A DNA stretch of 30,666 nucleotides, from contig JALVKK010000171.1 in the NCBI GenBank assembly GCA_027033875.1, positions 1 through 30,666 of the forward strand, given 5' to 3'. Position numbers and translations under genes: made by a program. The stretch is from Flavobacteriales bacterium (GTDB lineage: Bacteria > Bacteroidota > Bacteroidia > Flavobacteriales > Flavobacteriaceae). Shown piece after piece: positions 3 to 20,542 of the stretch (its first letter is position 1; the number at the start of each line of letters is the position of its first letter). The notes beneath the pieces were generated by a model. The model made no database searches, was not told the DNA's origin, and worked only from the letters and a program-made list of their open reading frames with translations.

Positions 3-3000
3 GTAATCACAGGTGTGGTTACAGATGCCGGAAACGGAGAACCGCTTCCGGGTGTTAATATTGTTGTAAAAGGTACCCAAACGGGTGCCACAACAGATTT
101 TGACGGTAAATATACCATCAAAGCGAACAAAGGGCAAACCTTAATGTTCTCTTATGTTGGTTATAATACCGTTGAAAGGAAAGTAGGCGATTCTAATGTC
201 ATCAATGTACAATTAAAACAAGGTGATCAGTTAGAAACTGTTGTAATTACAGGTGCGCAAGGCATTAAAGAAAAACCAAAAGAGGTATCTTATGCACAAC
301 AGGTTGTTAAAGCTAAAGATTTGACTATTGGTAAAGACACCAATATTAAAACTGCTATTGCAGGTAAAGTTGCTGGGGTACAAGTTCATGCTCAAGCTGG
401 ATCTAAACTTGGACAATCTGGCAAAGTGTATTTACGTGGAGCAATCTCTGCTTTAGGTAGAAAAGAAGCAATTTATATTGTTGACGGCGTTGAAACCAGC
501 CCCGATAATATTGATATGGAAAACGTAGCTTCAATCAACGTACTAAAAGGACCTGCAGCAGTTTCATTATATGGTTTAAGAGGTGCTGATGGTGTAATCA
601 TTGTTACTAGCAAATCAGGTAAGAAAGGATCTTTAAGTGTTGAATTATATAATAACACAACCTTTGAAAAGGTAGCTTATTTACCTAACTATCAAAATGA
701 ATATGGTCAAGGATATAGGGGCGCTGCTGAGTTTGATACTTTTGATATGTCATCAGCTTCGAATTACCCTGCCGAATGGTCAGCTTTGAATGGCGGCCGA
801 TATATTAAAAGACCTTATGCTGATGAAAGTTGGGGACCTAAATTTGATGGCGAAGATTACTTTCCTTGGTACACATGGTGGCCAGGTGAAAATAACAGTA
901 ATAAATACTTTGCAAAACCTCAAAAATATGAAGCAGCCCCTAACAATGTTAAAGATTTTTATAATACTGGTGTCAACACCAAATCCGGTGTAGCTATCAG
1001 TGGTGGTAGCGATAAAGCCAAAGGCCGTATTTCTTTTTCTAAAAACGACATAAAAGGCTTGATTCCCACTACAACATTACAACAAAATATAGCTAGTGCT
1101 AAATTTAGTGTAAAACTTACTGATAAATTCACTATTGGTTTTAATGGAACATTATCTACCAAAGAAATAAATGGTGGTAGTGATTTTGATGATAGTTATG
1201 GAAATGCAATTTCTGGATCATTCAACCAATGGTTTGGTCGTCAGTTATCTACTAAAAAAATGAAAGAATTAAAAAACTTAAAAACAGTTAATGGTTATCA
1301 TGCCTCTTGGAACTGGTGGAGTCCTTATGGATATCTATTAGCGGACTTAGGTTATATCCCCGGAGGAGCTGCTGTTGAAAAACCTGTTTTTTGGTACAAT
1401 CCATACTGGCAATTAGAGCAAGAAAGTTATAATACAAATTATAATAGAGCAGTAGGTATTATTAACTTAGACTACAAACTTAGTGATAACTTAGATATTA
1501 AAGCTAGTGCATCTAAAACGACTAACACCTATAATTATGAAAGAAAAACCAATTATTTGATGCAATTTAATTCTAATGCTTTATCTTTTGGTTACACCGA
1601 TTATTTAAATTCGATGGAACAAACAAAAAGTTATTATGCTTTAAATGAATTAAAATTAATGGGAGATTTTAAACATCAATTTAATGATAATTTTAAATTA
1701 CAATTTATATTAGGAGGTAATTATAGAGGAGCTAACTATGAGAGATTAAAAAGCGCAATGTCAAGAAATGGCAAACCAACCTCAGCCGGTTTTGTAATTC
1801 CTGATGTTTACAGTTTCTCTAACTCTAAAGAAGTTATTAAACCGGAAAGTTTAATGAGAAGGTTTAAAGCTTTTACCGCATTTAGCCGTTTAAAATTAGA
1901 CTATAAAGACTTCTTATTTTTTACAGCCGATCTTTCTAACGTTTGGGATAGCCGATATGATTTATACGGTAGAGACAACTCTAATTCTTTTATGTTTGGA
2001 TCAGCCGGATTGAGTTTACTATTCTCAAAAGTATTAGAACTACCTAAATTTATTAACTTTGGGAAATTCCGTTTAAGCTATGCTGAAGTTGGAACCGAAA
2101 TTAATTCAAACAGTTTAAACCCTGGATATGTAATTGGTGCGTCAGACTATGATTCATATAACAATCTTCCATTAATGTATTTACCAAATACTATTGTTGA
2201 TCCAAATGTAAGACCTGCAACATCTTCAGCAATAGAAACAGGTATAGATTTGAAAATGCTTAATAATAGATTGATGTTCTCTTTAACTTACTTCAACGAA
2301 CACCGTAAAAACGAGATTATTAGAACTGAAATTCCTTATGAAAGCGGTGCGCAAGCTATCATGGCTAACGCAGGAGATGTCCAAAGAACCGGTTTCGAAA
2401 TTGAATTAGGTGGTGATATTATAAAAAAGGAAGATTTCGGTTGGCACATGGCAGTTAACTTCTCTAATCCTAACGTAGAAGTCATTAAATTAGCTGATGG
2501 ACAAGATAGTCAATTATTATCAAGAAGTTCATTTGGGGTTGTTTCTGTCTTAAATATGCCAGGGGAACCTTACGGACAACTTGTCGGTACCGGTATTAAA
2601 AAAGATAAAAACGGAAATAATATTATTGATCCTTCGACTGGTTTTTATGTTACTGAAGAAAATCAAAAGTTTGGTAGCATCTTACCCGATTTTAACGGAG
2701 GTATTATCAACTCATTCAGGTATAAAAATATAAACTTGGCTGCAACGATCAACTACCAAAAAGGTGGCAAATTTTTCAGTTTATCAGAGTGGTGGGGAAC
2801 TTACACTGGTGTATTAGCTGAAACCGCCGGAAACAATGACAAAGGTCATGAACAACGAGATGATGTAGCTAATGGTGGAGGTGTTCACGTTACAGGTGTT
2901 GACGAAGCAGGAAATGCAGTTGATATGTACGTAGAAGCACACGACTATTATCAACAACAATATCCTAGCTTAGCAGAAGGTTTCATTCACGATGCCAGTT

Positions 3001-3230
3001 ATATCAAATTGTCTGAAGTTAGCTTGAGCTATTCATTCCCTAAATCTCTTTTAGGAAAAAATATCAAAGGAGCTTCAATAGGTGTAGTTGCCAGAAATTT
3101 AGGTATGATTGCTGTCTCAGGCGACAATAAACATAACTGGGATCCTTCGGAATTCGGTTATATGTTTGGTGATGATGCCCAATTACCAGGAACTACCAGT
3201 TTTGGTTTCAATGTAAAATTAACTTTATAA
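3..3230 (+). CDS. SusC/RagA-family TonB-dependent outer-membrane transporter, 5'-truncated by the window edge
   Basis: Frame is open from position 3 (V-I-T-G-V-V-T-D). N-terminal CarboxypepD_reg-like segment (GEPLPGVNIVVKGT..TTTDFDGKY), TonB-box-like LETVVITG, plug motifs (IYIVDGV, NVLKGPAAVSLYG..GADGVIIVTSK), barrel ending in aromatic alternation FGFNVKLTL. Followed 13 bp later by a SusD. Confidence 0.95.
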   Translation, partial: VITGVVTDAGNGEPLPGVNIVVKGTQTGATTDFDGKYTIKANKGQTLMFSYVGYNTVERKVGDSNVINVQLKQGDQLETVVITGAQGIKEKPKEVSYAQQVVKAKDLTIGKDTNIKTAIAGKVAGVQVHAQAGSKLGQSGKVYLRGAISALGRKEAIYIVDGVETSPDNIDMENVASINVLKGPAAVSLYGLRGADGVIIVTSKSGKKGSLSVELYNNTTFEKVAYLPNYQNEYGQGYRGAAEFDTFDMSSASNYPAEWSALNGGRYIKRPYADESWGPKFDGEDYFPWYTWWPGENNSNKYFAKPQKYEAAPNNVKDFYNTGVNTKSGVAISGGSDKAKGRISFSKNDIKGLIPTTTLQQNIASAKFSVKLTDKFTIGFNGTLSTKEINGGSDFDDSYGNAISGSFNQWFGRQLSTKKMKELKNLKTVNGYHASWNWWSPYGYLLADLGYIPGGAAVEKPVFWYNPYWQLEQESYNTNYNRAVGIINLDYKLSDNLDIKASASKTTNTYNYERKTNYLMQFNSNALSFGYTDYLNSMEQTKSYYALNELKLMGDFKHQFNDNFKLQFILGGNYRGANYERLKSAMSRNGKPTSAGFVIPDVYSFSNSKEVIKPESLMRRFKAFTAFSRLKLDYKDFLFFTADLSNVWDSRYDLYGRDNSNSFMFGSAGLSLLFSKVLELPKFINFGKFRLSYAEVGTEINSNSLNPGYVIGASDYDSYNNLPLMYLPNTIVDPNVRPATSSAIETGIDLKMLNNRLMFSLTYFNEHRKNEIIRTEIPYESGAQAIMANAGDVQRTGFEIELGGDIIKKEDFGWHMAVNFSNPNVEVIKLADGQDSQLLSRSSFGVVSVLNMPGEPYGQLVGTGIKKDKNGNNIIDPSTGFYVTEENQKFGSILPDFNGGIINSFRYKNINLAATINYQKGGKFFSLSEWWGTYTGVLAETAGNNDKGHEQRDDVANGGGVHVTGVDEAGNAVDMYVEAHDYYQQQYPSLAEGFIHDASYIKLSEVSLSYSFPKSLLGKNIKGASIGVVARNLGMIAVSGDNKHNWDPSEFGYMFGDDAQLPGTTSFGFNVKLTL

Positions 3231-3243: not shown

Positions 3244-4704
3244 ATGAAGAAATTAATTTATTTCGTAGCGTTAGTAGTCCTAACACTTAACTCTTGTAAA
3301 AGAGTTGATTTTGGGGACATTAACATAGATCCATATCAACCTCAACAAGGCAACATAGATGCATTGATGAGAGGTGCTATGTCAAGTTTTGCCACTAATG
3401 GTGGTCGTGTTTACTTTTCAAATGCGACTCTTTACGCACAATATCAATCACAAACCACATACACCCAAGAACAAAGATATGTTCAATATGTCGGATCTTG
3501 GTACAGATATTATGTTGAACAGTTAAACAGTTTAAAAAGTATTGTTAACACAAATGATGATGTTAGAGGATCAACAGATAACATGAAAGCAATAGCTGAA
3601 TTAACAAGTGTTTTGATATACAAAAGAATTACGGACACCTATGGTGATATTCCATACTTTGAAGCACTTGATAATGACAATTTAACGCCAAATTATACTC
3701 CTCAAAGAGAAATTTATCTGGACTTAATTGCTAGGGCAAAAGCAGCTAGGGATTTATTAAATCCAAGCGCATTTACACCCGATGCCAATACTGATATTTT
3801 CTACGGGGGTGATATCCAAAAATGGGGTAAATTCGCGAACTCATTAATATTAGCATTAAGTATTCAATTATCTAATACTGATGCTGCTTCTTTAGCACAA
3901 AATGCTTTTAATGAAGCATTAGGTAACTCTTATGGTGTTATTGAAGATAATTCTGATAATTTAGTATTCACACCAAACGTAGCCGGTGGAGTTGTTAATC
4001 CTATTTCTAGATCGAGACCTGGTGACTTTAATGTTTCTAAAGAATTGACTGATGCATTAATGGGAAATCCCGGTCCTTGGGGAGCCGGCTTGAACGATCC
4101 TAAAAATGTTACGTCGAATCATACCTATGATAAACGTGTTTTAAAGTATACTGAAAATGGTTCTGATGGTTTGCCATTTGGATATACTTCTTATCCGGGA
4201 GCAGCTGACAGTATGAATGATATGTTTGATAGCGAAGACTCTCCCTTTACTCTATTTAGTGCCGCTTACACTTGGTTAAACCGAGCAGAAGGTGCTTTAA
4301 TATACAGTTCAGGAGAAGACGCCTCTACTATGCTAACAAATGGTATTGAAAAATCATATACTGCGGTTGGATTAACTCTATCAGATGCTAGCTCGTACGC
4401 AGCCATCAGAATAGCTGATGCTGGTAACGCAAGTATAGCTCCTGGAGGTATGGCACAAGTAATAGGTGAAGAAAAATGGTTTGCTTTATTCCCTGACGGA
4501 TTTGCCGCTTGGGCGGAACAAAGAAGAACAGGATGGCCTGCATTGCAACCTGCACCTGATGCGGTTAATGGCGGAGTAATACCTCATAGAATGCTTTATC
4601 CCTCAAATTCTAAAACGGTTAACCCGAACGGATGGGCACAAGGTGTTCAAGGTTTATTGCCTTCAGAAGACCTAAATACATCTGAAATTTGGTGGGAACA
4701 ATAA
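3244..4704 (+). CDS. SusD/RagB-family outer-membrane lipoprotein
   Basis: Lipoprotein signal (MKK..LTLNSC), TDTYGDIPYFEAL, DIFYGGDIQKWGKFANSL, EKWFALF..GFAAWAEQRRTGWP, IPHRMLYP and C-terminal IWWEQ are SusD-like motifs. Directly downstream of susC. Confidence 0.93.
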   Translation: MKKLIYFVALVVLTLNSCKRVDFGDINIDPYQPQQGNIDALMRGAMSSFATNGGRVYFSNATLYAQYQSQTTYTQEQRYVQYVGSWYRYYVEQLNSLKSIVNTNDDVRGSTDNMKAIAELTSVLIYKRITDTYGDIPYFEALDNDNLTPNYTPQREIYLDLIARAKAARDLLNPSAFTPDANTDIFYGGDIQKWGKFANSLILALSIQLSNTDAASLAQNAFNEALGNSYGVIEDNSDNLVFTPNVAGGVVNPISRSRPGDFNVSKELTDALMGNPGPWGAGLNDPKNVTSNHTYDKRVLKYTENGSDGLPFGYTSYPGAADSMNDMFDSEDSPFTLFSAAYTWLNRAEGALIYSSGEDASTMLTNGIEKSYTAVGLTLSDASSYAAIRIADAGNASIAPGGMAQVIGEEKWFALFPDGFAAWAEQRRTGWPALQPAPDAVNGGVIPHRMLYPSNSKTVNPNGWAQGVQGLLPSEDLNTSEIWWEQ

Positions 4705-4720
4705 AACTCATCTTTAACCT

Positions 4721-4757
4721 TATAAAAAAACCGCCAAATTTGGCGGTTTTTTTTATA
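4721..4757. terminator. Bidirectional intrinsic terminator after susD
   Basis: Perfect palindrome CCGCCAAATTTGGCGG flanked by an A7 and a T8 tract. Confidence 0.9.
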
Positions 4758-4827
4758 CTAAGTAAGCCAATACAAACAATAAGCAAAATTATATGTTAAA
4801 TAATTTAAACATCAAACAATAAAAACC

Positions 4828-4835
4828 TATCTTTG
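4828..4835 (+). promoter_or_regulatory. Bacteroidota -7 promoter element for gene X fragment 1
   Basis: TATCTTTG matches TAnnTTTG. The same octamer precedes the other two gene X copies. Confidence 0.6.
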
Positions 4836-4842
4836 TTAATTA

Positions 4843-4904
4843 ATACCGAATTTCGAATTCAATATAGTTCATTTCATTGAACTATATTCATTCAGTATCG
4901 GTAT
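4843..4904. repeat. Long imperfect hairpin in the leader of gene X fragment 1
   Basis: Perfect 11-bp arms AATATAGTTCA (4861-4871) / TGAACTATATT (4878-4888), extended by GAAT/ATTC and outer ATACCGA/TCGGTAT arms. Confidence 0.7.
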
Positions 4905-4982
4905 AAACAATTCTAAAAACATAAAATAGTTTTGGCTATTTTATATTAAGAATACGTATAATCAAAACAAACAACTAACAAA

Positions 4983-5030
4983 ATGACATCACCACACAAT
5001 TTTCATATCCCTGTTATGGGGGTGGCATAC
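4983..5030 (+). pseudogene. Gene X fragment 1: first 16 codons only
   Basis: MTSPHNFHIPVMGVAY matches the start of 20543-22339 (MNALHNFHIPVMGVAY). Similarity ends abruptly at 5030; the ORF runs on through unrelated sequence to 5180. Confidence 0.85.
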
Positions 5031-5168
5031 TATAATTACCTGCAAGCTACCAAAAAGAAAAATCCAAAACCAAACTCCTTTTCTTTTTTAAAATTCAAAA
5101 TAAGTCTATCTATATCTATAAGACAGGTAGTTATGTTTTATATCATAATGGTGAGCTTAAATCTGACT

Positions 5169-5208
5169 TTTTTACACTAAATGATTATTTTTATAAATTT
5201 TTACACTA
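5169..5208 (+). promoter_or_regulatory. 11-bp direct repeat upstream of the antitoxin remnant (possible operator)
   Basis: TTTTTACACTA at 5169-5179 and 5198-5208. The operator role is inferred from autoregulation of AbiE-type systems. Confidence 0.3.
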
Positions 5209-5232
5209 TATTTTTAGGCAGTATATAAAACA

Positions 5233-5409
5233 ATGAGAATTAAAAACATATCAACTCAATCAAGTAAAATCTTAACCTACTTTAACGAGTTAGGACAAGA
5301 GTGTTTTACTTATGCTGATGCTGTTAAGGTTTTACCCAATTCAAGAAATAGCGCCTTGAAAGAATTATTGAGTGATATGGTAAAAAGAGGCCTCTTAATG
5401 CGTTTGAAA
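5233..5409 (+). pseudogene. N-terminal ~59 aa of an AbiEi-like (type IV TA) antitoxin, winged-helix region
   Basis: ISTQSSKILTYFNE..CFTY..ALKELLSDMVKRGLLMRLK resembles the N-terminus of Bacteroidota AbiEi-family antitoxins as I recall them. The frame then reads 7 unrelated codons to a stop at 5433. Confidence 0.7.
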
Positions 5410-5639
5410 ATTTGTTGGAAAAACATCAAATAGACATAGAATTTTATATTGCTGATTTTATAAAAAAATGTGAAAACAAAGGTATAAATCCCTCAAATTT
5501 TCATTCAAAACTCAACCAAAGATTACCACAATACAAAGCCCGTTGGCAGAAGTCTATGGCAGATCAAATTCAAAATTTACCGGATTTTGAAACTGTGTTG
5601 CGTGGAACAATGCGTCATTTAAAAAAATTAGAAGTGTAA
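5410..5639 (+). pseudogene. C-terminal ~75 aa of an AbiEii-like nucleotidyltransferase toxin
   Basis: LLEKHQIDIEFYI..F..KCENKG..P..FH.KL.QRLPQYKARWQKSMADQIQNLPDFE..RHLKKL resembles the C-terminus of the cognate toxin. No catalytic N-terminal half (KGGT / SEDLDF-type motifs) is present, and there is no proper start. Confidence 0.65.
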
Positions 5640-5649
5640 AATGAAACCC

Positions 5650-5685
5650 CTGTAGGCAACACATATATAATACATAGCGGAGTTC
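5650..5685 (+). other. Possible left arm of an attC-like (integron-cassette-type) palindromic element, right arm missing
   Basis: CTGTAGGCAAC-ACATATATAATACATAGCGGAGTTC begins ~10 bp after the toxin stop. It resembles from memory the left arms of cassette-bounding repeats in Bacteroidota. No complementary arm is seen downstream. Confidence 0.35.
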
Positions 5686-5749
5686 TACTGAAAAGTATTG
5701 CTCTCAAATTTAATCTAAAATAAAATCTTAGACTTCAAAATTAAAACCC

Positions 5750-5757
5750 TATCTTTG
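5750..5757 (+). promoter_or_regulatory. Bacteroidota -7 promoter element for gene X fragment 2
   Basis: TATCTTTG 27 bp upstream of the ATG at 5785. The context AAAACC(C)TATCTTTGTTAATTAAT is shared with 4822-4844. Confidence 0.65.
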
Positions 5758-5784
5758 TTAATTAATTAAAAGAATAACAAACAA

Positions 5785-6066
5785 ATGAACTCTCCCCACA
5801 ATTTTCATATTCCCGTTATGGGGGTTGCTTATACTATTGACACGCCTTTAAAGGTCGCACCGTTTGGTATCGATTCCGTTATTTCACTTGTCGATAATGT
5901 TTTGCTGGAAAAATTGCGGGCAAAGTATAGTGAAAAATTTAACTTACCCTACAAAGAAATTTCACAGAAAGCCGAAGATTATATGGCTAAACGTATCACG
6001 GCTTATTTGAACTTAATCAATAAATTGACCATAGAAAAATTTGAAGAACAGAAAAACGGTTTTTAA
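5785..6066 (+). pseudogene. Gene X fragment 2: first ~93 codons
   Basis: Aligns without gaps to the N-terminus of 20543-22339 (HNFHIPVMGVAYTI..PLKVAPFGIDSVISLVDNVLLEKLR.KYSEKF.LPYKEIS.KAEDYMAKRITAYL) with many synonymous differences. Stops at TAA 6064-6066. Confidence 0.9.
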
Positions 6067-6606
6067 ACAAGCAGATTATATTATAATTATATACCTGATT
6101 GGGGTATTATAAATGCCTATAAAGCATCTTGGTTTGGAGGTGGTGATAACGGTAAATTTTATGGTAATCAAGCCTTACTTACCTATGGAGAAATGTTACT
6201 AATTCAAGCGGAAGCAGAAGCTAGAGTAAATGGTGTAAGTAATGGTGTTGACAAACTTAATGATTACTATAATCTACTTGGTGCCGGTTATACCCCGCAA
6301 GGTGGAGATATGGGATTTGGTCTAGGATATCCTACCAGAACAGCCGCAGATTATGCAACTCTTAAAGATTTCTTAACTGACGTACTTCAAGAAAGATATC
6401 TATATTTTATTGGTGACTTTGAAGCATTTGTTGATCATGCACGTGTTAACGGCGATGCCGATGTTGACAGTAGTTATATGCAATTAAAATCAGGCTTCAC
6501 AGGAAACCCAGTAAGGTTCCTTTATCCACAGGTTGAAATTGATTCCAATGATAATATCCCCGCTACCATACCTGATATTAACGCACCATTACCTATTTAT
6601 AACTAA
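6067..6606 (+). pseudogene. 3' fragment (~179 codons) of a second SusD/RagB-family gene
   Basis: Frame is open from 6067 (TSRLYYNY...). LLTYGEMLLIQAEAEAR, VLQERYLYFIGDFEAFVDHAR and PVRFLYPQVEIDSNDNIP are SusD C-terminal motifs. No signal peptide, N-terminus or partner SusC. Confidence 0.8.
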
Positions 6607-6629
6607 GCCTAAATAATTTAGCAATGAAA

Positions 6630-6668
6630 AAAAGAGGCTGTCTCAAAAATATCGAGACAGCCTCTTTT
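6630..6668. terminator. Bidirectional terminator-like hairpin between the susD fragment and the convergent T9SS gene
   Basis: Perfect 15-bp arms AAAAGAGGCTGTCTC / GAGACAGCCTCTTTT with a 9-nt loop. Confidence 0.85.
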
Positions 6669-6686
6669 ATATAAAACTATTTGCTT

Positions 6687-8492
6687 TTATTCTTTGATAA
6701 ATTTCACTGTTGAAATTTTTTCACCGGCTTTTACACGCATCATATAGACACCGTTTTGCAAATCGGCAATGTTTAAAATAACTTGCTTTTGGTCAGGCGC
6801 CAAATATCGTACTTCTTGTCCTAAAAGATTAGTGATACTGATAAAATCAATATTTGAATCGGCACTGACATTTAAGACGTCGGTAGCAGGGTTCGGATAG
6901 AATTTGAATGACAACTGTTGGTAGTCTTCAACACTGAGAGCATCATCGGTTAAATAAAATAGAGATGTTCCTATATTGTCATTTTTATAATCCCAAGTTC
7001 TTAACCAATAATCATGTCCGGCAGTTAGACCGGAAACGGTTTTTACTTCATAAGGAGAGGAAAATCCTAAAATGTTAATGGATCCACAATAGATATCAGA
7101 ATTGGCGGTTGCACTGTTATAAATAGCAAATGAGAATGCTGACCAGTCCCCGGCATCATTTGAATGATGTACTTTAACAACGCCTGATGAAGGCGCTGTA
7201 AATTTGTACCAAACATCACCACCTTGATAATTAGCATTGGGACCACTACCTCCACAACTTGGTATGCTGTTTATAGGATGCGAACTCGTACTAAAAGTAT
7301 TATCAGCAGAAGTCAATATGAACAAAGAAGCATTTTCAGGTTGTACATTAATATCAATGGCATATGCAGCTTCATCATTACCTTCAATTTTGGCAAGATA
7401 GAATGGCATAATACCAAAATCATCATTATAATAATCCCACATTCTGATGTAATAAGTATCACCGGCATTTAAGTCACCTACCATATGAGGAATAAATAGA
7501 TTCGCATTATTATTCATTATTCCGCCACAAACAACAAGCGTTCCATTATACGCATTATGATAAATGGCATACCCCACTATGCCTATACCGTAACCGGTTC
7601 TCATGATACTAATTGCACCTGTACTGGGCGCGGTAAACTTATACCAAACATCACCACCTTGATAACCGGTACAACCAGGGTTCCCCGGAGAGTTAGTAGC
7701 GCCTATATTATTAAAATAATTCATTTGAATGGTACTGTTATCTCTTGGATCTGCTAAGGTAATTGTTCGGGGGTGGGTATTAAAATCATTCCAAGCTTTA
7801 TCAAAAGTAAAAGTATAACGATACCCATTTCCGGGCCAGTTAGCAGCATCTATATTATTATTTGCCGTTGTTCTGGAAATTGTAGGATTTGAACCGGAAG
7901 ACGTAACACTGATAAACGTAGTGTTAGTCCCATCATAATAATTAAAGCCTATTGATGCATTTAAATTGTTTCCGCTATCGCAATGTCCATAAAAAAATTC
8001 AATTTCATTGGAAGTTTCTCTTAATTTCAAACCAAAGCTCATATCGTGAGCACTGTCATTATAACGTGAAATATTTTTCCAATGAACTATAAAAACTCTG
8101 TTTGGTGCCGTACCAACTGTTTCATATGCAATATAACCATTATTGGCAGAATATAATATTAAATCATCCCACAAAGGAGCAATCATATTTTTTCTACCGT
8201 TAGATGTAGAAGCTAAATCATTTATTAAACTAATATTATTTTCTGTAAAAGATATGGCTCCGTTAACACCTACAGTACAAGTAGTAAATTTTTTACCACC
8301 GTAATAAAAGTCAAAACCGATGGGTACACCGGTTTGTTCTTGTTCGTCACCTGATGTCCAAAGGGTCGTTGCCGAACTACCCGGCATAGGATAACTCGAC
8401 AGACCACTTCGTGTAAGCGTATAATAATCCACTTGCGCTTGAAGGTTAAACATCAAGATGAATAAAAACGTGAATAAAATAGCTCTTTTCAT
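6687..8492 (-). CDS. T9SS (type A CTD) secreted protein with an N-terminal beta-rich domain and two tandem 'GDVWYKFTAP' domains
   Basis: Signal peptide (MKR..LQAQ). C-terminal T9SS sorting domain (FYPNPATDVLNV..GVYMMRV..TVKFIKE). Two ~145-aa repeats containing YQGGDVWYKFTAPS.G and Y..R.WDY.ND. Confidence 0.88.
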   Translation of the reverse strand: MKRAILFTFLFILMFNLQAQVDYYTLTRSGLSSYPMPGSSATTLWTSGDEQEQTGVPIGFDFYYGGKKFTTCTVGVNGAISFTENNISLINDLASTSNGRKNMIAPLWDDLILYSANNGYIAYETVGTAPNRVFIVHWKNISRYNDSAHDMSFGLKLRETSNEIEFFYGHCDSGNNLNASIGFNYYDGTNTTFISVTSSGSNPTISRTTANNNIDAANWPGNGYRYTFTFDKAWNDFNTHPRTITLADPRDNSTIQMNYFNNIGATNSPGNPGCTGYQGGDVWYKFTAPSTGAISIMRTGYGIGIVGYAIYHNAYNGTLVVCGGIMNNNANLFIPHMVGDLNAGDTYYIRMWDYYNDDFGIMPFYLAKIEGNDEAAYAIDINVQPENASLFILTSADNTFSTSSHPINSIPSCGGSGPNANYQGGDVWYKFTAPSSGVVKVHHSNDAGDWSAFSFAIYNSATANSDIYCGSINILGFSSPYEVKTVSGLTAGHDYWLRTWDYKNDNIGTSLFYLTDDALSVEDYQQLSFKFYPNPATDVLNVSADSNIDFISITNLLGQEVRYLAPDQKQVILNIADLQNGVYMMRVKAGEKISTVKFIKE

Positions 8493-8567
8493 AACAATAA
8501 GAATTTAAGGATTAAATTTTATATCAAAAATAATAAGAGAATTATTGCAAAAACAATAAAATTCACA

Positions 8568-8617
8568 AACTGCATAAACTAGTTTATAAACGACATAAAT
8601 TAATATATGAACGACAT
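8568..8617. promoter_or_regulatory. Three direct repeats at 21-bp spacing upstream of the T9SS gene (LytTR-like operator)
   Basis: AACTGCAT (8568), AACGACAT (8589), AACGACAT (8610). Confidence 0.45.
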
Positions 8618-8726
8618 TATTACAGATTTACAGACCGGTAAATTGAGGAGAAAAAAAATGAGATAAATCTGTAAAATTCGGAAGAAAAAACATAATTTCT
8701 ATAATTCAAATTTCAGATTAATACAT

Positions 8727-8757
8727 AAAAAAACCTGCCAAAATAGATTGACAGGTT
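8727..8757 (-). terminator. Intrinsic terminator of rpmE2
   Basis: The minus strand reads AACCTGTCAA-tctat-TTGGCAGGTT-TTTTT, a 10-bp stem with one G-U pair followed by a U tract. Confidence 0.8.
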
Positions 8758-8781
8758 GTAAAATTATGTTTTATAATCGGT

Positions 8782-9033
8782 TTATTTTTTAAACTTGGCG
8801 TATTTTCTTTTAAATTTATCAATACGTCCTGCTGTATCAACCAATTTCATTTTTCCGGTATAGAACGGGTGTGAAGTTCTGGAAATTTCCACTTTTACCA
8901 AAGGGTATTCAACACCTTCCACTTCAATTGTTTCTTTAGCTTCAGCGGTTGAACGGGTTAAATAAATCTCTCCGTTTGACATATCTTTGAATGCAACCAT
9001 TCTATAATTTTCGGGGTGAATGCCTTTTTTCAT
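8782..9033 (-). CDS. rpmE2: 50S ribosomal protein L31 type B
   Basis: [40 protein letters not shown]; no CxxC motifs. Confidence 0.97.
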
Positions 9034-9068
9034 CGTCTTATATTTTTGATTTCCTTATTTAGAGTGTG

Positions 9069-9076
9069 CAAATTTA
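9069..9076 (-). promoter_or_regulatory. -7 promoter element of rpmE2
   Basis: TAAATTTG on the minus strand, ~35 bp upstream of the start codon. Confidence 0.6.
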
Positions 9077-9120
9077 TAAACTTTTTTTTAATTGACAATA
9101 ATATTGTTGATTTTTTTAAT

Positions 9121-9129
9121 GGGGGGGGG
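9121..9129. repeat. G9 homopolymer tract
   Basis: Nine consecutive G in an AT-rich divergent intergenic region. Confidence 0.9.
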
Positions 9130-9258
9130 ACTTCTAAAATCTTAAATCGTCAAAACTTGTTCGATATTCAAAATATAGAAGTTGAAGTAATATAATAGAA
9201 ATTAGAAGTGTTAAGCAGTTATCATAAAACGAAACAATTACTCACTCTTCACTCCTCA

Positions 9259-9321
9259 AACATTATAAACATTATGAACATTATGAACATTATAAACATT
9301 ATGAACATTATAAACTTTTAA
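9259..9321. repeat. 9-bp tandem repeat (AACATTATR x6 plus one degenerate unit)
   Basis: Units start at 9259, 9268, 9277, 9286, 9295 and 9304, with degenerate AACTTTTAA at 9313. Confidence 0.92.
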
Positions 9322-9349
9322 CTAAATTGCAGTTTCAAAAACAAAGGCA

Positions 9350-10636
9350 ATGCAAATAGACGGATTTTCAAAATTATCAAAAAAAGCTAAAATTGATTGG
9401 TTATTACAAACGTATTTTAACAATGATAATACTGCTCGTCAAATTTTATGGCAATATTGGCACAACGACAAAGCCCTTCAAAAACTCCACGACGGCTTTA
9501 TTGAAAATACCATTACAAATTATTATCTGCCTTATGCCATAGCGCCAAATTTTTTGATAAATGGCAAAATGTATGCCATACCAATGGCAATTGAAGAAAG
9601 TTCCGTAGTGGCGGCAGCCTCCAAAGCCGCCAAATTTTGGTTAGACAAAGGCGGTTTTAATGCAGAGGTTATCAATACGGTCAAAACCGGACATATTCAT
9701 TTTGTTTACACCGGCAAAACAACCGATTTGATTCAATTTTTCAGACAAAATCGTACTAAAATTTTGGACTCGGTTGCCGGTATCCAAAACAATATGCAAA
9801 AACGCGGAGGCGGTATAAAAGATCTAAATTTGATAGACAAAACGACTGCCATGTCCGATTATTATCAAATTGAATTTCAGTTTGAAACAGCCGATGCCAT
9901 GGGGGCTAATTTTATCAATTCGGTCTTAGAAGAAGCCGCCGATACCTTGCAAACATTGGCACAAAAAGAATTATCCGGAGATTTACAAGTTTTGATGCGT
10001 ATTTTGTCCAACTATACACCGGATTGTCTTGTAAGAGTTTCGGTTAGTTGTCCGGTTTCGAAATTGAAAAGTGATGAATTATCAGGCGAAAACTATGCCC
10101 TAAAATTTGTAAAAGCAGTCAATGTTGCCGAAGTAGAACCATATAGAGCCGTAACCCACAATAAAGGAATAATGAATGGCATCGATGCGGTGGTTATTGC
10201 CACGGGTAACGATTTCAGAGCCGTTGAAGCCAATGCGCACGCTTATGCCGGCAAAAGCGGACAATATACGTCTTTGTCTCATGCCGAAATAAAAGACGAA
10301 ATTTTCCGGTTTTGGATAGAAATGCCTTTGGCAATAGGAACGATAGGTGGTATAACGGCTATACACCCTTTAACGCGTTTTTCGTTGCAATTGCTTCAAA
10401 ATCCAACCGCAAAAGATTTGATGCAAATCATAGCGTCGGTAGGTTTGGCACAAAATTTTGCCGCTGTCAATTCGTTGATAACAAGCGGTATCCAAAAAGG
10501 ACACATGAAAATGCACCTCAACAATCTTTTGACGTTCCTGCAAGCCTCACCGGAAGAAAGACAACGAGCAGAACTATATTTTGCCGACAAAAAAGTCAGT
10601 TTCAAAGCCTTAAAAGATTTGTTGGGACGCCGGTAA
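9350..10636 (+). CDS. mvaA: Class II hydroxymethylglutaryl-CoA reductase
   Basis: ENTITNYYLPY, PMAIEESSVVAAAS, DAMGANFIN, ILSNY, THNKGIMNGIDAV.IATGNDFRAVEA, GLAQNFAA, GIQKGHMKMH. Confidence 0.95.
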   Translation: MQIDGFSKLSKKAKIDWLLQTYFNNDNTARQILWQYWHNDKALQKLHDGFIENTITNYYLPYAIAPNFLINGKMYAIPMAIEESSVVAAASKAAKFWLDKGGFNAEVINTVKTGHIHFVYTGKTTDLIQFFRQNRTKILDSVAGIQNNMQKRGGGIKDLNLIDKTTAMSDYYQIEFQFETADAMGANFINSVLEEAADTLQTLAQKELSGDLQVLMRILSNYTPDCLVRVSVSCPVSKLKSDELSGENYALKFVKAVNVAEVEPYRAVTHNKGIMNGIDAVVIATGNDFRAVEANAHAYAGKSGQYTSLSHAEIKDEIFRFWIEMPLAIGTIGGITAIHPLTRFSLQLLQNPTAKDLMQIIASVGLAQNFAAVNSLITSGIQKGHMKMHLNNLLTFLQASPEERQRAELYFADKKVSFKALKDLLGRR

Positions 10637-10671
10637 TCAATAAATTATATTATTATTTCAACTATTTTTAT

Positions 10672-10679
10672 TATATTTG
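10672..10679 (+). promoter_or_regulatory. -7 promoter element of the FG-GAP gene
   Basis: TATATTTG ~60 bp upstream of ATG 10739. Confidence 0.5.
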
Positions 10680-10738
10680 TAATAAAATACAACACTGCTT
10701 ATTACAATAAACAATAAGCATATTAAAAAATTAATATT

Positions 10739-12106
10739 ATGAAAAGAATATTTACATTTGTTTTACTATTTGTCAGCGTAACTGTTTTTGCACAGTTTCA
10801 AAGAAATGTTGTTGCCAATCTAACCGGAGCATACGGCATTTTGGAAAAAGATGTTAATGGCGATGATATTTTAGATTTGCTTGCTGCCGGTGAATCCGGC
10901 AATATTTTAGCCTATTTTATCAACGACGGTAGCGGTAATTTTACCCAAACGACTATTGACAGCAATTTTACAGGCGCTCGTTTTATTGACGGTGCCGATT
11001 TTGACAATGACGGTGATATGGATTTTGTTGCTACCGGCACTTCCGATTTGGTTTGGTACTTAAACGATAACGGCACTTTTGTCAAAACGGTGATTGAAAC
11101 CGGACTTAATGACCCGCGTCAGGTGCGTACTTCGGATATAGGAGATTTAACAAATCCCGCAACACCTGACGGTGATATCGACTTGGGAGTTTTGGTTAGT
11201 GGCGAAAATACCGTATCGGTTTATTTTAATGACGGGGCTAATAATTTTAGTCGTTTTAATATCATCAGTATCAATTCACCGCGATATTTACACGGTGGTG
11301 ATTTTGATTCTGATAATTCTCCCGATTTTTTAATTTCATCGTATAACGGAGACGGTACCAACGACGAAGACAATATATTTTGGTATTATGTCGGTAATTG
11401 GGGGTTGACGCAGGGTGGTGTCGTTGCCAGTAATTTTCACGGCGCTTTCGGTGTCGAAGGCGGTGATATCGATTTGGACGGCGACGACGATGTTATTGGT
11501 GCCGCTTATATCGATAATGAAGTAGCTTGGTTTGAAAACCTAAATGGGGACGGTTCGTCTTTTACCAAACACATTATCGATGATAATTTACCCGGTGCTT
11601 CTTATGTACATTGGTTGGATATTGACGATGACGGTGATAAAGATATCGTTGCTACCGGTTACGGCGATACTTCCGGAAACAATTCGCAAGTGGTTGTTTA
11701 CTATAACGACGGCGCTCAAAATTTTACCAAAACGCTTATCGATGATACTATTCAAGGAGCCAATACATTTACCGTACAAGATTTTAACGGCGATGGTAAA
11801 AACGATATAGCTGTAACAGGCTCGGTTTCCAATGAAGTTGTTGTGTATATTTACAACCCCGGCAATGTAAAACAAAATTCGATTACCGGTTTGTCGATAT
11901 ATCCCAATCCGGTAAAGGACGTTTTGCATATTGCACCGGCAGACAAAATTCAACAAATTCAAATATTTGATATCACCGGACGACAAGTTCTTTCAACAAA
12001 TCAAACTGTTATCGATGTTTCAAAATTGGACAAAGCCTATTATTTGGTTAAAATGATTTTGAAAAATCACAATATCATAACTAAAAAAATTTTGATATTG
12101 AAATAA
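10739..12106 (+). CDS. FG-GAP/VCBS-type repeat (beta-propeller) protein with T9SS C-terminal sorting domain
   Basis: Signal peptide. About seven D-x-N/D-x-D-G-D-x-D repeats each followed by W/Y-Y/F-x-N-D-G. CTD IYPNPVKDVLHI..IFDITGR..YLVK..KKILILK. Confidence 0.9.
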   Translation: MKRIFTFVLLFVSVTVFAQFQRNVVANLTGAYGILEKDVNGDDILDLLAAGESGNILAYFINDGSGNFTQTTIDSNFTGARFIDGADFDNDGDMDFVATGTSDLVWYLNDNGTFVKTVIETGLNDPRQVRTSDIGDLTNPATPDGDIDLGVLVSGENTVSVYFNDGANNFSRFNIISINSPRYLHGGDFDSDNSPDFLISSYNGDGTNDEDNIFWYYVGNWGLTQGGVVASNFHGAFGVEGGDIDLDGDDDVIGAAYIDNEVAWFENLNGDGSSFTKHIIDDNLPGASYVHWLDIDDDGDKDIVATGYGDTSGNNSQVVVYYNDGAQNFTKTLIDDTIQGANTFTVQDFNGDGKNDIAVTGSVSNEVVVYIYNPGNVKQNSITGLSIYPNPVKDVLHIAPADKIQQIQIFDITGRQVLSTNQTVIDVSKLDKAYYLVKMILKNHNIITKKILILK

Positions 12107-12124
12107 AACCCGATACAAATCCGG

Positions 12125-12946
12125 TTATAGCATTTTTAAAAAATCGATTTCTTTTTGGGTCAAATGTCGCCAATGTCCGCGTTTGAGATCTTTTTTGGTC
12201 AGTCCGGCAAACAAAACACGGTCCAGTTTGATGACATCATATCCCAGATACTCGAATATCCGGCGAACAATACGGTTGCGACCCGAGTGGATTTTGACCC
12301 CTACTTCGTTGTGCGAAACGCCTTTGATATACGAAATTTCATCGACTTGAACATGTCCGTCATCTAACTCTAAACCTGCTTTGATTTTTTCCATATCCGA
12401 AGGCTTCAGGTTTTTATCAAGTTTGACATGATAAATCTTTTCAACACGATGCTTAGGGTGTGTCAATTTTTTAGCCATATCACCGTCATTGGTAAAAAGC
12501 AGTACGCCGGTAGTATTACGATCCAATCTGCCTACGGGATAAATTCGTACGGGAGCAGATTTTTCGACTAATTCCATAACTGTTTTGCGTCCTTTTTCAT
12601 CTTCGGTGGTAGTGATAAAATTTTTTGGTTTATTGAGCAATACATAGATTTTTTTTTCGGGTTTGATGGTTTCGCCGTTAAATTGAACTTTATCTCCCGA
12701 TTGTACTTTGTAACCCATTGTCGTAACGACTTTGCCGTTGACACTGACAGCGCCTATCTTTATCAATTCATCTGCATCACGTCGCGAAGCTATTCCGGCA
12801 TGAGCCAAATATTTGTTTAGACGCATCGCCACGTCTGTCTTAGGCTCACCGGTTTTCTTAACAGTAGATTTTTTAAGTCGCGGTTTGTAATTTTTTGATA
12901 TAAAATTTTTCTTTGGCTTGTTATTATGTTGGGATTTCTTTTTCAT
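12125..12946 (-). CDS. rluB: RsuA/RluB-family rRNA pseudouridine synthase with S4 domain
   Basis: MRLNKYLAHAGIASRRDADELI (S4), LNKPK, PVGRLDRNTTGVLLFTNDG, GRNRIVRR. The exact paralog (RluB vs RluF) is uncertain. Confidence 0.9.
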   Translation of the reverse strand: MKKKSQHNNKPKKNFISKNYKPRLKKSTVKKTGEPKTDVAMRLNKYLAHAGIASRRDADELIKIGAVSVNGKVVTTMGYKVQSGDKVQFNGETIKPEKKIYVLLNKPKNFITTTEDEKGRKTVMELVEKSAPVRIYPVGRLDRNTTGVLLFTNDGDMAKKLTHPKHRVEKIYHVKLDKNLKPSDMEKIKAGLELDDGHVQVDEISYIKGVSHNEVGVKIHSGRNRIVRRIFEYLGYDVIKLDRVLFAGLTKKDLKRGHWRHLTQKEIDFLKML

Positions 12947-13006
12947 TTGGCAATTGTTATGAATTTTATAAACATTCCACTAGCAAGCTTGCGAGCAAAC
13001 TTGCTG

Positions 13007-13014
13007 CAAAGATA
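13007..13014 (-). promoter_or_regulatory. -7 promoter element of the pseudouridine synthase gene
   Basis: TATCTTTG on the minus strand. Confidence 0.55.
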
Positions 13015-13075
13015 TGACAATTTGACATAATCATACGGGCTTATCATTGCAAATAATTCTATGGCATATTTATTG

Positions 13076-13083
13076 TAAATTTG
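13076..13083 (+). promoter_or_regulatory. -7 promoter element of the Trx-Grx/groES operon
   Basis: TAAATTTG 23 bp upstream of ATG 13107, which supports that start over the TTG at 13047. Confidence 0.6.
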
Positions 13084-13106
13084 TCGGTGAAAAATTATTC
13101 GTAAAT

Positions 13107-13679
13107 ATGAATTTTGTTGTTGTAAAGGATTATCAAGATATCGTTAAAGACAGTGATACCAAAAAATTCATTTTAATTTACAAAAAAGGAACTGTCAATT
13201 CCGATTGTGCCTATGAAGCCTTAACAAAAATTAAAGACGCTAGGGTTTTGACGGTTGATGTCAATTCGGTTAGGAATGTTCACGAGCATTTCGGGGTCGA
13301 TTCGGTTCCCTCGTTGGTGGTAACAACCGGTGCCAAAGTAGAAAATATCATCAAAGGTTGTCAAACTCCGGCATATTTTGATCAAATTATTCACGAAAAA
13401 AAAGCTGTCTATACGACACCGGACAAGCGTCAAGCACAAAAACGAGTAGTGGTGTATTCGACTCCGACCTGTCAATATTGCAACAAATTGAAGCAATATT
13501 TTAACAAACACGGAATCAAATATACAGACATAAATGTTGCGAGCAATCAACAAGCCGCTGCCGAAATGGTTCGTAAAAGCGGACAACGCGGTGTACCGCA
13601 AACCGATATAAACGGACAAATCATAATCGGTTTTGATACGGCAAAATTGAGCAGAATATTAAATATACCAACAGAATAA
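13107..13679 (+). CDS. Thioredoxin-like domain fused to a glutaredoxin (NrdH/YruB-like) domain
   Basis: N-terminal Trx-like features (FILIY..NSDC..VLTVDV..FGVDSVPSLV). C-terminal VVVYSTPTCQYC..SGQRGVPQTDINGQIIIGFD. Confidence 0.85.
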   Translation: MNFVVVKDYQDIVKDSDTKKFILIYKKGTVNSDCAYEALTKIKDARVLTVDVNSVRNVHEHFGVDSVPSLVVTTGAKVENIIKGCQTPAYFDQIIHEKKAVYTTPDKRQAQKRVVVYSTPTCQYCNKLKQYFNKHGIKYTDINVASNQQAAAEMVRKSGQRGVPQTDINGQIIIGFDTAKLSRILNIPTE

Positions 13680-13700
13680 ATAACTAAAAACCAAAATAAT

Positions 13701-13988
13701 ATGAGAGAATTACAACCATTAAACGAGAATGTTTTACTGGAATTAACCGATGAATTTACCGAAGAAAAAACAGCTTCGGGTATCATTATTCCCGACAGCG
13801 CCAAAGAAAAACCCTCATTGGGACGTGTTTTGGCATTAGGCAATATTGAAGATGCCGCCGTCAATCCGGGTGATGTCGTAATGTATAAAAAATTTGCCGG
13901 CAACAAAGTGGAATTAGACGGCAAAGAATATCTGATTTTGCCTTATGCTGACATTTTGGCTAAAATCAGTGAAGTAGATGCTATTTAA
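13701..13988 (+). CDS. groES: Divergent stand-alone GroES (Cpn10) paralog
   Basis: Mobile loop EKTASGIIIPDSAKEKP, VNPGDVVMYKKFAG, ELDGKEYLIL..DILA. No groEL adjacent; a terminator follows directly. Confidence 0.88.
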   Translation: MRELQPLNENVLLELTDEFTEEKTASGIIIPDSAKEKPSLGRVLALGNIEDAAVNPGDVVMYKKFAGNKVELDGKEYLILPYADILAKISEVDAI

Positions 13989-14008
13989 TCAAACTTTGTA
14001 AAATTTTA

Positions 14009-14050
14009 TAATAAGAAACCGCTCCGGCTTGCCGGAGCGGTTTCTTATTA
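14009..14050. terminator. Bidirectional terminator between groES and ssb
   Basis: Perfect 20-bp inverted repeat TAATAAGAAACCGCTCCGGC-tt-GCCGGAGCGGTTTCTTATTA. Confidence 0.9.
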
Positions 14051-14078
14051 CAGTATTTTATCGAGTAACAACACCAAC

Positions 14079-14420
14079 CTATTGATTGTTACCTCTCAAT
14101 AACAAAACTTCATTGACTAAAACTTCAGTTACATACCGACGTTGACCGTCTTTGGTTTCATAACTGCGATTGGTCAGTTTGCCTTCGATGGCAATTTCTT
14201 TACCTTTATCGACAAAATTTTCGATAATTTCTGCGGTTTTGCCCCAAGCCACCAAATTGTGCCAATAAGTCTGTGTAATACGCTCACCATCTTTATTGAG
14301 ATAAGTCTCATTGGTTGCGATAGAAAATTTGGCAACTTTTCTGCCGTTTTCTAAAGTTTTGATTTCAGGTACTTGACCTACGTTTCCGATTAATTTTACA
14401 CTGTTTTTTAAAGTACTCAT
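14079..14420 (-). CDS. ssb: Single-stranded DNA-binding protein, OB fold only (no acidic C-terminal tail)
   Basis: NSVKLIGNVG..PE..FSIAT..T.WHNLVAWGKTAE..KG..IAIEGKL.NRSYE.KDG..RYVTEV; ends LRGNNQ. Confidence 0.93.
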   Translation of the reverse strand: MSTLKNSVKLIGNVGQVPEIKTLENGRKVAKFSIATNETYLNKDGERITQTYWHNLVAWGKTAEIIENFVDKGKEIAIEGKLTNRSYETKDGQRRYVTEVLVNEVLLLRGNNQ

Positions 14421-14536
14421 AATAAAAAATTTAATGGTTAATAAATAATTAAAATAGTGTCATATAAAGTATGTGATTATATGCTTGATACAACACTGAC
14501 GTGCATCGATTCAAACTTTCGATTGATTTGATAGTG

Positions 14537-14600
14537 CAAATGTATGACAGCCGGCAAATTTTATTCGGTTATTAAGCGTTTACTTACGAAAATAGTCGTT
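14537..14600 (-). promoter_or_regulatory. ssb promoter: -7 element plus helically phased boxes
   Basis: TACATTTG (14537-14544, minus strand). CG dinucleotides at 14566, 14577, 14587 and 14597. Confidence 0.45.
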
Positions 14601-14774
14601 TGCAAACATTTGTATTTGGTTTTTGTATTGATATTCAACACATTATAACAGCCGAAGTAATTGTAAATAAATGATTGTTTTTGTTGGTGTATATTATACC
14701 CATATATTATAGGCAACGTTTCAACAAACTTTCAACTTAGGTTATTGAGCTTGCCGAAATATAACTTTTTACTT

Positions 14775-15680: not shown

Positions 15681-15936
15681 TTTTTTTGTAAACTCTGTAA
15701 ATTAATCCGGCTATATATTGTGCCGATATAAAAGCAATGACATTGTATAAAACGGATATCCATGAAAAACCGATGTGAAAATGAAACTTGTTGTAAATGC
15801 GAAGTATAATGATAAAGGCCACTGGTATGTGAATGGCAAGCATCCAATCTCGTGATTTGAATTTGCTTTTGACACGCCAAAAACCAAATGGAAAGGCTAA
15901 TAAAAACACAATAACGGCAAAAGTTATGTTATTCAT
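15673..15936 (-). CDS. Small hypothetical membrane protein (~87 aa)
   Basis: Three hydrophobic segments with PFGFWR..W.LAIHIP pattern. The stop overlaps the gldA start. ATG 15936 is preferred to 15963. Confidence 0.7.
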   Translation of the reverse strand: MNNITFAVIVFLLAFPFGFWRVKSKFKSRDWMLAIHIPVAFIIILRIYNKFHFHIGFSWISVLYNVIAFISAQYIAGLIYRVYKKNE

Positions 15937-15997
15937 AGAATAATTTTTGCAAATGTAAGTCAAATATAATAATTTTGAGAGAACAAAAACAATTCTG

Positions 15998-16717: not shown

Positions 16718-16740
16718 TAATAGATAATAGATATTATCAA

Positions 16741-16756
16741 TAAATTTGTAAATTTG
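16741..16756 (+). promoter_or_regulatory. Tandem -7 elements upstream of the HIT gene
   Basis: TAAATTTG-TAAATTTG. Confidence 0.5.
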
Positions 16757-16773
16757 TCCAAAACAAAAGTCTT

Positions 16774-17531: not shown

Positions 17532-17803
17532 AATAATAATTTATAATAGGTCTGACAGTCAAATATACAATTTTTTGATGATATGGTTGTTTGGTTAATC
17601 GGTTATTTGAGGAATTGAGGAAATGAAATTGTTGAATTATTTATTATGCAAAAGAAAATTGTATCGTAACCGGTATTAGTAATATCTATTATTTTCAATC
17701 AAAATTGAATTTGAGGTCATCAAATACAGGTGGTCCGAACCTGAATTTCGGATGTCCTGATAAAGCATAAGATTTATCAAAAAAAAATAAAATTTATCAA
17801 CAT

Positions 17804-18235: not shown

Positions 18236-18321
18236 AAAAAACATATTATTATTGCGATGGTACGGTTTTCAAAAAAAGAAAAAAAATATCCCCTTCAAAC
18301 CGTATATTATTGTAAGTAAAA

Positions 18322-20517: not shown

Positions 20518-20542
20518 CCATTTATTGAACATCATCAAACAA

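Follow-up and report, generated by a model that had tools for sequence, protein, structure and literature searches.

Remnants of an AbiE–MmeI defence cassette, gene X and susD in a probable recombination scar of a hydrothermal-vent Flavobacteriaceae genome

The type IV toxin–antitoxin and abortive infection system AbiE (Dy et al., 2014; PMC3985639) is one of the described systems closest to a decayed cassette found in positions 4760–6670 of contig C171 (JALVKK010000171.1) of a Flavobacteriales bacterium (GCA_027033875.1). The window referred to below is the whole stretch of DNA analysed, 30,666 nucleotides of this contig; the source is a metagenome-assembled genome (MAG) of 348 contigs, 1.97 Mb and about 92% completeness, and the public sequencing runs in which the stretch occurs belong to three studies and are metagenomes of hydrothermal vents. 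In the congener G011 an intact bicistronic pair is present, composed of an AbiEi protein of 273 residues from its ATG (Pfam AbiEi_1/AbiEi_4) and an AbiEii protein of 267 residues (PF08843 at residues 30–255, E = 1.8e-36). The pieces in the window are 93–95% identical to this pair at the amino acid level; unlike the described system, however, they amount to 59 antitoxin codons and 75 toxin codons, a remnant and no system. They descend from an AbiE locus of which neither a full AbiEii nor a two-domain AbiEi is left. The stretch as a whole is most likely a non-functional recombination scar, situated in a gap that varies among strains and that has a SusCD pair on one side and, on the other, a convergent gene for a cargo protein of the type IX secretion system (T9SS).

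Other described systems share part of this picture. As in decayed defence islands at variable hotspots, an abiE plus MmeI-type cassette occupies a strain-variable gap with conserved flanks, and presence and absence, as well as intact and deleted states, are found among co-occurring strains; unlike those islands, only about 0.5 kb of the cassette is left, no integrase or mobile backbone is visible, and it is a protein-coding gene whose duplicated 5′ ends form the flanks. Another comparison is with SusC/SusD loci for the utilisation of polysaccharide or protein, in which susCD pairs are tandem or swapped and which the locus resembles in having an intact susC–susD upstream and a second susD tail downstream; in the relative GCA_054013135.1, the orthologous susD1 is followed by two tandem pairs. 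In contrast to those loci, the second susD of the window is without its N-terminal 290 residues, approximately, and without a susC.

Genomes of the genus, among them the congeners G011, G002, G003, G007 and G008, are designated G000–G012, and G022 belongs to another genus. The public metagenome runs X1, X2, X3 and X4 were compared through their Logan unitigs and contigs, and unitigs with zero mismatches are termed exact. A preliminary description of the window had proposed a mosaic of abruptly joined fragments between two terminators, in which every piece had lost its middle or one end. All the pieces that it listed were recovered at their places, with refined coordinates, and each maps to a gene that is intact elsewhere; a 118-bp element, a junction at 5646/5647 and a 7-nt filler at 6058–6064 are further parts. 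The features of the stretch, together with the resident gene used as reference, are as follows.

4724–4753, no strand: bidirectional terminator after susD1, a perfect 30-nt palindrome
4786–4840, plus strand: gene X promoter copy A, −7 box TATCTTTG at 4828–4835; the gene X promoters of G002 and G007 are its orthologues
4841–4958, no strand: 118-bp two-hairpin interspersed repeat, similar to miniature inverted-repeat transposable elements or repetitive extragenic palindromes (MITE/REP-like), in the 5′ untranslated region (UTR) of copy A
4959–5034, plus strand: 5′ UTR and first 16 codons of gene X, allele A (stub A; ATG at 4983, codons 4983–5030)
5035–5130, no strand: 96 nt of no known identity, with no significant fold
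5131–5409, plus strand: upstream region and first 59 of the 273 codons of abiEi, ATG at 5233
5410–5639, plus strand: last 75 of the 267 codons of the abiEii toxin gene
5641–5646, plus strand: ATGAAA, the first two codons of an MmeI-family restriction-modification gene; homology to G011 ends at 5646
5647–5705, no strand: 59 nt of no known identity, with no attC core and no palindrome
5706–5784 (start about 5706), plus strand: gene X promoter copy B and 5′ UTR, −7 box at 5750–5757
5785–6066, plus strand: 93 codons of gene X, allele B, and a stop codon (stub B)
6065–6606, plus strand: 3′ part of a second susD, the C-terminal 177–179 residues
6630–6668, no strand: hairpin terminator shared with the convergent T9SS-cargo gene
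20487–22339, plus strand: resident intact gene X with its own promoter (ATG at 20543), then a HAD-family gene

Parental genes of the fragments

The origin of the cassette remnant has been traced by comparison with G011. Window 5131–5410 matches the abiEi side of the intact G011 locus with identities of 89% (nucleotides) and 95% (amino acids), and window 5410–5646 matches the abiEii end with 96% and 93%, respectively, against a background identity to congeners of 74–87%. The two blocks sit 1,214 bp apart in G011, so that one deletion took 78% of the antitoxin gene and 72% of the toxin gene; the microhomology at the resulting junction (5410) is at most 1–2 nt. No motif is shared by the junctions of the stretch, as the preliminary description had observed. 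The toxin piece gives no Pfam AbiEii match, most of the PF08843 domain being gone. The antitoxin stub gives values below the cut-offs for both AbiEi_4 (E = 8.8e-4) and NCBIfam TAA_AbiEi (4.1e-5); it retains the N-terminal winged-helix region, to which the weak AbiEi_4 match corresponds, and the C-terminal domain is absent. Downstream of the abiE pair in G011 there is an MmeI-family restriction-modification gene and then a helicase gene. The abiEi 5′ part, the abiEii 3′ part and the MmeI start of the window thus keep the order and orientation of a single G011 cassette, with an extra break at 5646/5647 that had escaped earlier notice. The abiE–MmeI linkage is also found in G022. In both genomes with an otherwise intact cassette the MmeI-family gene is broken, into three open reading frames (ORFs) in G011 (L023, contig C260, 1867–4564) and to a fragment of about 215 residues in G022 (L028, contig C8, 4830–5476). 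This cassette moves and decays repeatedly.

The preliminary description had also suggested half of an attC arm after the toxin piece, a proposal that does not hold. There is no GTTRRRY on either strand in 5640–5745, and the stretch in question folds no better than shuffled sequence (z = +0.44 and +0.67). An integron boundary was rejected on these grounds (no core, no imperfect palindrome, no array and no intI nearby); the sole likeness to integron cassettes with attC is a non-coding stretch placed directly after a stop codon. The segments 5035–5130 and 5647–5705 have no relatives in 41 related genomes, and searches against 300 family genomes returned low-complexity noise only. No tRNA was found in either of the two segments, and Rfam gave terminator look-alikes only.

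Gene X, present as two stubs on either side of the cassette remnant, is intact at 20543–22339 (598 residues) and in congeners, and its protein matched no Pfam or NCBIfam family. An alignment of gene X starts, which took in both stubs, the resident copy and eight genes of seven congeners, revealed a conserved −7 box, followed by the UTR and by the invariant N-terminus HNFHIPVMGVAY. The box TATCTTTG is read as the gene X promoter box on the basis of TAnnTTTG, which we take to be the Bacteroidota-type −7 consensus. For stub A and its UTR, the identity is 96% to G008 and 91% to G002, and this homology stops at about 5034; against the resident gene X, the 75-nt stub A gave no scored match. Stub B matches G002 and G008 at 87%, and when the genome of the organism itself was searched at the DNA level, window 5727–6045 was identified as a 76% copy of the resident promoter and start (20487–20803). 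Over the first 91 codons, the resident gene is 72–80% identical to congener genes and stubs. It follows that the stubs represent alleles in common with other species and not recent copies of the resident gene. Stub B is itself a mosaic, in which the UTR resembles G011, codons 10–67 are like those of G002/G008 and the last codons like those of G012; homology to gene X runs to about 6057 and is succeeded by the 7-nt filler. Its ratio of nonsynonymous to synonymous substitution rates (dN/dS) is 0.13, vs. 0.02–0.06 among intact gene X genes. The promoter and gene X start of the two copies form direct repeats of about 130 bp, around 80% alike and with blocks of 49 nt (84%) and 30 nt (90%), which bracket the cassette remnant. 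This genome alone has three occurrences of the gene X 5′ motif; none of the 13 congeners and 400 family genomes searched has more than one. Three congener contigs break exactly in the first gene X codons (the ends of G010 C171 and G010 C26 and the start of G003 C54), which points to strain variation or repeats at this end of gene X in further species as well.

The left terminator (4724–4753) is of the sequence type that precedes gene X in G002, G003, G007 and G011, and differs from the one found after the orthologous susD1 in GCA_054013135.1 or in a JGI contig. Within promoter copy A, the 118-bp element has two hairpins (fold z = −6.6) and ends reading TA..TA with an ambiguity of 4 nt, and many copies of it are found in G002, G003, G005, G007, G008 and G009. 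Contigs of X1 and X2 skip 4841–4958, which is weaker evidence as the short side measures only 23 nt. Being short, non-coding, structured, multi-copy and insertion-polymorphic, the insert is MITE/REP-like. Short intergenic sequences elsewhere in the window (about 17560–17637, 14723–14790 and 9196–9336) match many congener contigs, and the genus seems to be rich in small interspersed repeats. The right terminator hairpin (6630–6668), formed by GAGGCTGTCTC, a 9-nt loop and GAGACAGCCTC, occurs near-unchanged at dozens of intergenic sites in G000–G012, and would behave like a dispersed repeat rather than a private terminator.

At the right-hand end, the susD tail corresponds to residues 290–483, approximately, of a 483-residue SusD-like_2 protein, about 60% of the gene being gone. 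It is 48–57% identical to SusD-like proteins of 483 residues and 46% identical to the susD that precedes gene X in G003; its SusD_RagB match (E = 0.0074) is below the cut-off, and no susC precedes it. It is not a full SusD/RagB lipoprotein, as the N-terminal part with its lipoprotein signal and the partner susC are absent. In GCA_054013135.1 (L039, 6661–19439) the orthologous susC1–susD1 is followed by a second susCD pair and by a T9SS-sorted S8 peptidase. A peptidase of this kind also comes after the closest full-length homologues of the susD tail (L045–L047), a hint that these SusCD pairs serve protein or peptide uptake.

Junctions and alleles in other assemblies

The joints of the stretch are carried by assemblies of other samples. 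The ENA scaffold L048 (SAMN10217872) equals window 4625–5866 with one mismatch and no gap (99.9% identity), and spans, in a single molecule, the end of susD1, the terminator, promoter A, the repeat, stub A, junctions 5034, 5410 and 5646, promoter B and the start of stub B. The scaffold L044 (SAMN10217873) equals window 5953–6875 with six mismatches and no gap (99.4%), and spans the joint between the 93 codons of gene X and susD, the susD tail, the terminator and the end of the T9SS gene. These scaffolds may share reads with the MAG, being independent of it as assemblies and samples and not as populations, and 5866–5953 is the one link without an independent scaffold. In addition, exact unitigs from two studies bridge 5034 (X1), 5410 (X2), 5675–5841 with the start of promoter B (X1), and 6066 (X1 and X3); 6066 is bridged in X2 with one mismatch, and junction 5646 is bridged by L048 only. 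The gene order from the T9SS gene to gene X–HAD is identical in three other assemblies, at 93–97% identity, and a contig-scale chimera across 6687–23000 was rejected for this reason. Contigs from two of those three assemblies end at window 6523 or part-way through the T9SS gene, which is the effect that a strain-variable locus has on assemblers. These breaks, the many contigs of the MAG, the mixed-strain samples and the very fragmented Logan unitigs at the locus would all suit a metagenome assembly chimera, in which strains had been joined at short repeats; given the gapless agreement of two scaffolds from other samples and the exact unitigs across most junctions in runs of two studies, such an artefact is extremely improbable. 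The doubt raised in the preliminary description, whether reads span the junctions, has largely been answered in this way, and its proposed search for intact donors retrieved intact gene X, the abiEi–abiEii pair of G011 and full SusD homologues.

The scar is polymorphic in the population, and undeleted alleles co-occur in the same metagenomes. Contigs of X2 and X4 reach 5410 from either side and then continue as intact abiEi or abiEii matching G011. Another example is a 1,424-nt contig of X4, which is a fuller allele of the same locus; at about 92% identity, it carries an intact abiEii, then a tract of 824 nt in place of the 105 nt of the window, and after this promoter B, stub B and the joint at 6066. 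Other contigs run past 5993–6006 as intact gene X. At the right-hand junction, an X1 and X4 contig enters 6065 from sequence that is in frame as more SusD, and in X1 the shared unitig 6065–6875 has a depth of 229 vs. 94 for the junction unitig; a co-resident strain thus seems to carry an intact second susD beside the T9SS gene. In X3 a gene X start of G003 type precedes the 5034 junction, which therefore predates the shuffling of repeat alleles. For an undeleted second susCD or a fuller island allele, searches for proteins identical to the T9SS protein, to stub B and to a 137-residue ORF retrieved nothing, two scans of metagenome contigs gave nothing, and the loose-end sequence is absent from the MAG.

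History of the scar and competing explanations

The explanation that we favour, with moderate confidence, is that an abiE–MmeI cassette entered the 5′ end of gene X by means of homology carried on the incoming DNA, and that several independent deletions and the insertion of a small element followed. The starting point would have been the usual order of the genus (susC–susD, terminator, promoter, gene X, HAD), which is present in G002 and G007. A mobile abiEi–abiEii and MmeI cassette, such as those of G011 and G022, would then have entered the 5′ end of a gene X copy, leaving the promoter and 16 codons on the left and a second promoter and gene X on the right, that is, the direct repeat of about 130 bp. 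A homologous or Campbell-type route through a carried gene X 5′ fragment is likely, because the two copies of the repeat are distinct alleles that agree at only about 80% and each is similar to genes of other species. Subsequently, separate illegitimate deletions removed the 1,214 bp inside abiE and, in one or more events, cut the MmeI gene to 6 nt; both products are present in the window, and another strain has the 824-nt intermediate. A further deletion would have joined codon 93 of the right gene X to about codon 290 of a neighbouring susD through the 7-nt filler. The junction itself is observed, and a full gene X and a full second susCD may formerly have stood between 6057 and 6065. The 118-bp repeat element was also inserted into promoter A, where it now lies. 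In all, this reading calls for at least three or four separate illegitimate deletions, together with the insertion of one small element, after the entry of the cassette. The remnants would yield no working toxin, antitoxin, SusD or gene X product, and the genome would rely on the gene X–HAD pair 14 kb downstream.

This history has counterparts in known recombination processes. As in Campbell-type integration, a truncated left copy ends together with the repeat homology and is followed by foreign DNA and by a right copy with its own promoter; unlike it, the right copy was itself cut short by a deletion that came later, the repeat alleles have diverged, and there is no known circular donor. One seamless and one abrupt side, little or no microhomology and multi-donor mosaic alleles recall the homology-facilitated illegitimate recombination of transformation, with the difference that this organism is not known to be competent or to undergo transformation, and the donor molecule cannot be reconstructed. 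The preliminary description had proposed a much larger island collapsed by serial deletions, or else a hotspot for repeated capture of foreign DNA. The serial deletions are borne out by the 1,214-bp loss in abiE, the ATGAAA stub, the 824 nt of X4 against 105 and the co-occurrence of undeleted abiE, susD and gene X alleles; two complete SusCD loci and two full gene X alleles in one molecule would go beyond these data, an intact second susD being seen only as a population allele. A foreign origin of the pieces is likewise supported by the stubs, 87–96% identical to alleles of other species (stub B being about 76% identical to the resident gene), and by abiEii, 96% identical to G011 over a background of 74–87%.

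Several points weigh against the entry of a cassette followed by serial deletion. No genome was found with an intact cassette between two gene X 5′ copies, and no integrase or recombinase ORF was detected in 4760–6670, among the Pfam-screened ORFs of the window or in the 6.6-kb G011 contig. The segments 5035–5130 and 5647–5705 are without a traced source. An intact second susCD allele, which would give the extent and content of the DNA lost at 6057–6065, was not retrieved, and the order of events would rest on allele sharing in short unitigs and not on long molecules. Furthermore, the synteny of the genus is scrambled, so that the ancestral state of this species is uncertain, and the susD1 orthologues of two other relatives lie elsewhere, without gene X.

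Alternatively, the fragments might have been captured separately by homology-facilitated illegitimate recombination anchored on the terminator, the promoter and the 5′ part of gene X, with no complete island ever resident; the abrupt ends would then be joints that illegitimate recombination made during import. The fragments are indeed closest to different congeners (G008, G002 and G011, with a G012-like 3′ end of stub B), the junctions are without microhomology or shared motif, and the terminator–promoter module upstream of gene X is common to species whose upstream genes differ. Nevertheless, the population is polymorphic at the abiE breakpoint, intact alleles occurring in the same set of metagenomes, and X4 contains the fuller allele, which argues for deletion in place over the import of ready-made fragments; moreover, the abiEi, abiEii and MmeI pieces keep the order and orientation of one parental cassette. 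Such patchwork import is unlikely, although it deserves consideration. A tandem duplication of susD, terminator, promoter and gene X was disfavoured as the origin of the joint between gene X and susD, since the second terminator is followed by the T9SS gene instead of a promoter and gene X, and promoter B is preceded by the cassette remnant instead of a susD tail and terminator.

The direct repeats that bracket the remnant could also be taken as the attL and attR of a site-specific integrative element, for which the 5′ end of gene X would be the attachment site and whose carried promoter and first codons would restore the gene. This is improbable: an att core would be short and identical, and these repeats are long and agree at only about 80%; neither the remnant nor the window nor the 6.6-kb contig of G011 contains an integrase; and this genome is the only one with more than one gene X 5′ motif among 14 genus and 401 family genomes. 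A recurrent gene X attachment site was accordingly rejected. It is very doubtful that the gene X promoter and first 16 codons act as a portable homology handle or attachment site that moves defence cassettes between vent Bacteroidota. With comparably slight expectation, a cassette would on that proposal land at gene X with a replacement promoter and start, the gene staying expressed, as a protein-gene 5′-end counterpart of the islands that restore tRNA 3′ ends. That the pieces are functional, their promoters driving small proteins (a 93-residue gene X N-terminal peptide or a 66-residue AbiEi helix-turn-helix stub) or regulatory RNAs, is very improbable. Both gene X stubs retain promoter, UTR and start codon, stub B keeps an open frame of 93 codons and the AbiEi stub keeps its winged-helix region; however, searches of congener and family genomes revealed no relative that keeps such small genes, whose conservation in relatives would have refuted the preliminary description, and the dN/dS of stub B is raised. 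Rfam offers no RNA candidate beyond the terminator look-alikes, and alleles with and without the deletions co-occur.

Neighbourhood and significance of the locus

The scar is flanked by the following genes.

3–3230: susC
3244–4704: susD1
6687–8492, minus strand: T9SS-sorted surface protein (T9SS-cargo gene), convergent, with GBD_T9SS_assoc and Por_Secre_tail domains
after the T9SS gene: rpmE, the HMG-CoA reductase gene and other housekeeping genes
18322–20256, minus strand: amino-acid permease

The order of these genes differs strongly between species of the genus over window 6687–20500. In G002 and G007 the sequence is susC, susD, terminator, promoter, gene X and HAD; in G008 and G011 gene X–HAD lies behind another upstream gene, and in G003 a susD2-like gene, the terminator and gene X succeed each other. 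The susD1 orthologue (80% amino acid identity) of GCA_054013135.1 or of the JGI contig belongs to a susCD1 pair located by the rpsL–fusA operon. The amino-acid permease gene adjoins rpmE in four relatives, and the T9SS gene adjoins an rpiB-like gene in three. In this species the positions of the T9SS and permease genes are swapped, with about 14 kb between the susCD pair and gene X–HAD, and the swapped order was confirmed in three assemblies of the species. The T9SS-sorted protein is 79% identical in amino acids to its counterpart in the same-species assembly GCA_054008475.1, in which the neighbouring rpmE, HMG-CoA reductase and FG-GAP proteins are 98–100% identical; from this comparison, it looks like a hypervariable surface protein.

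The processes involved are familiar ones, namely the gain and deletional decay of a defence cassette and the swapping of SusCD neighbourhoods, and the significance of the locus is modest, as no new mechanism or system is involved. It is also flagged as a place where MAG assemblies break. Its biological interest is that of a well-documented case, found in nature, of the acquisition of defence cassettes and their subsequent loss bit by bit, with an intermediate allele, the eroded form and undeleted versions of each broken gene in the same vent metagenomes, and of how a single deletion that takes most of both genes disarms a toxin–antitoxin defence pair.

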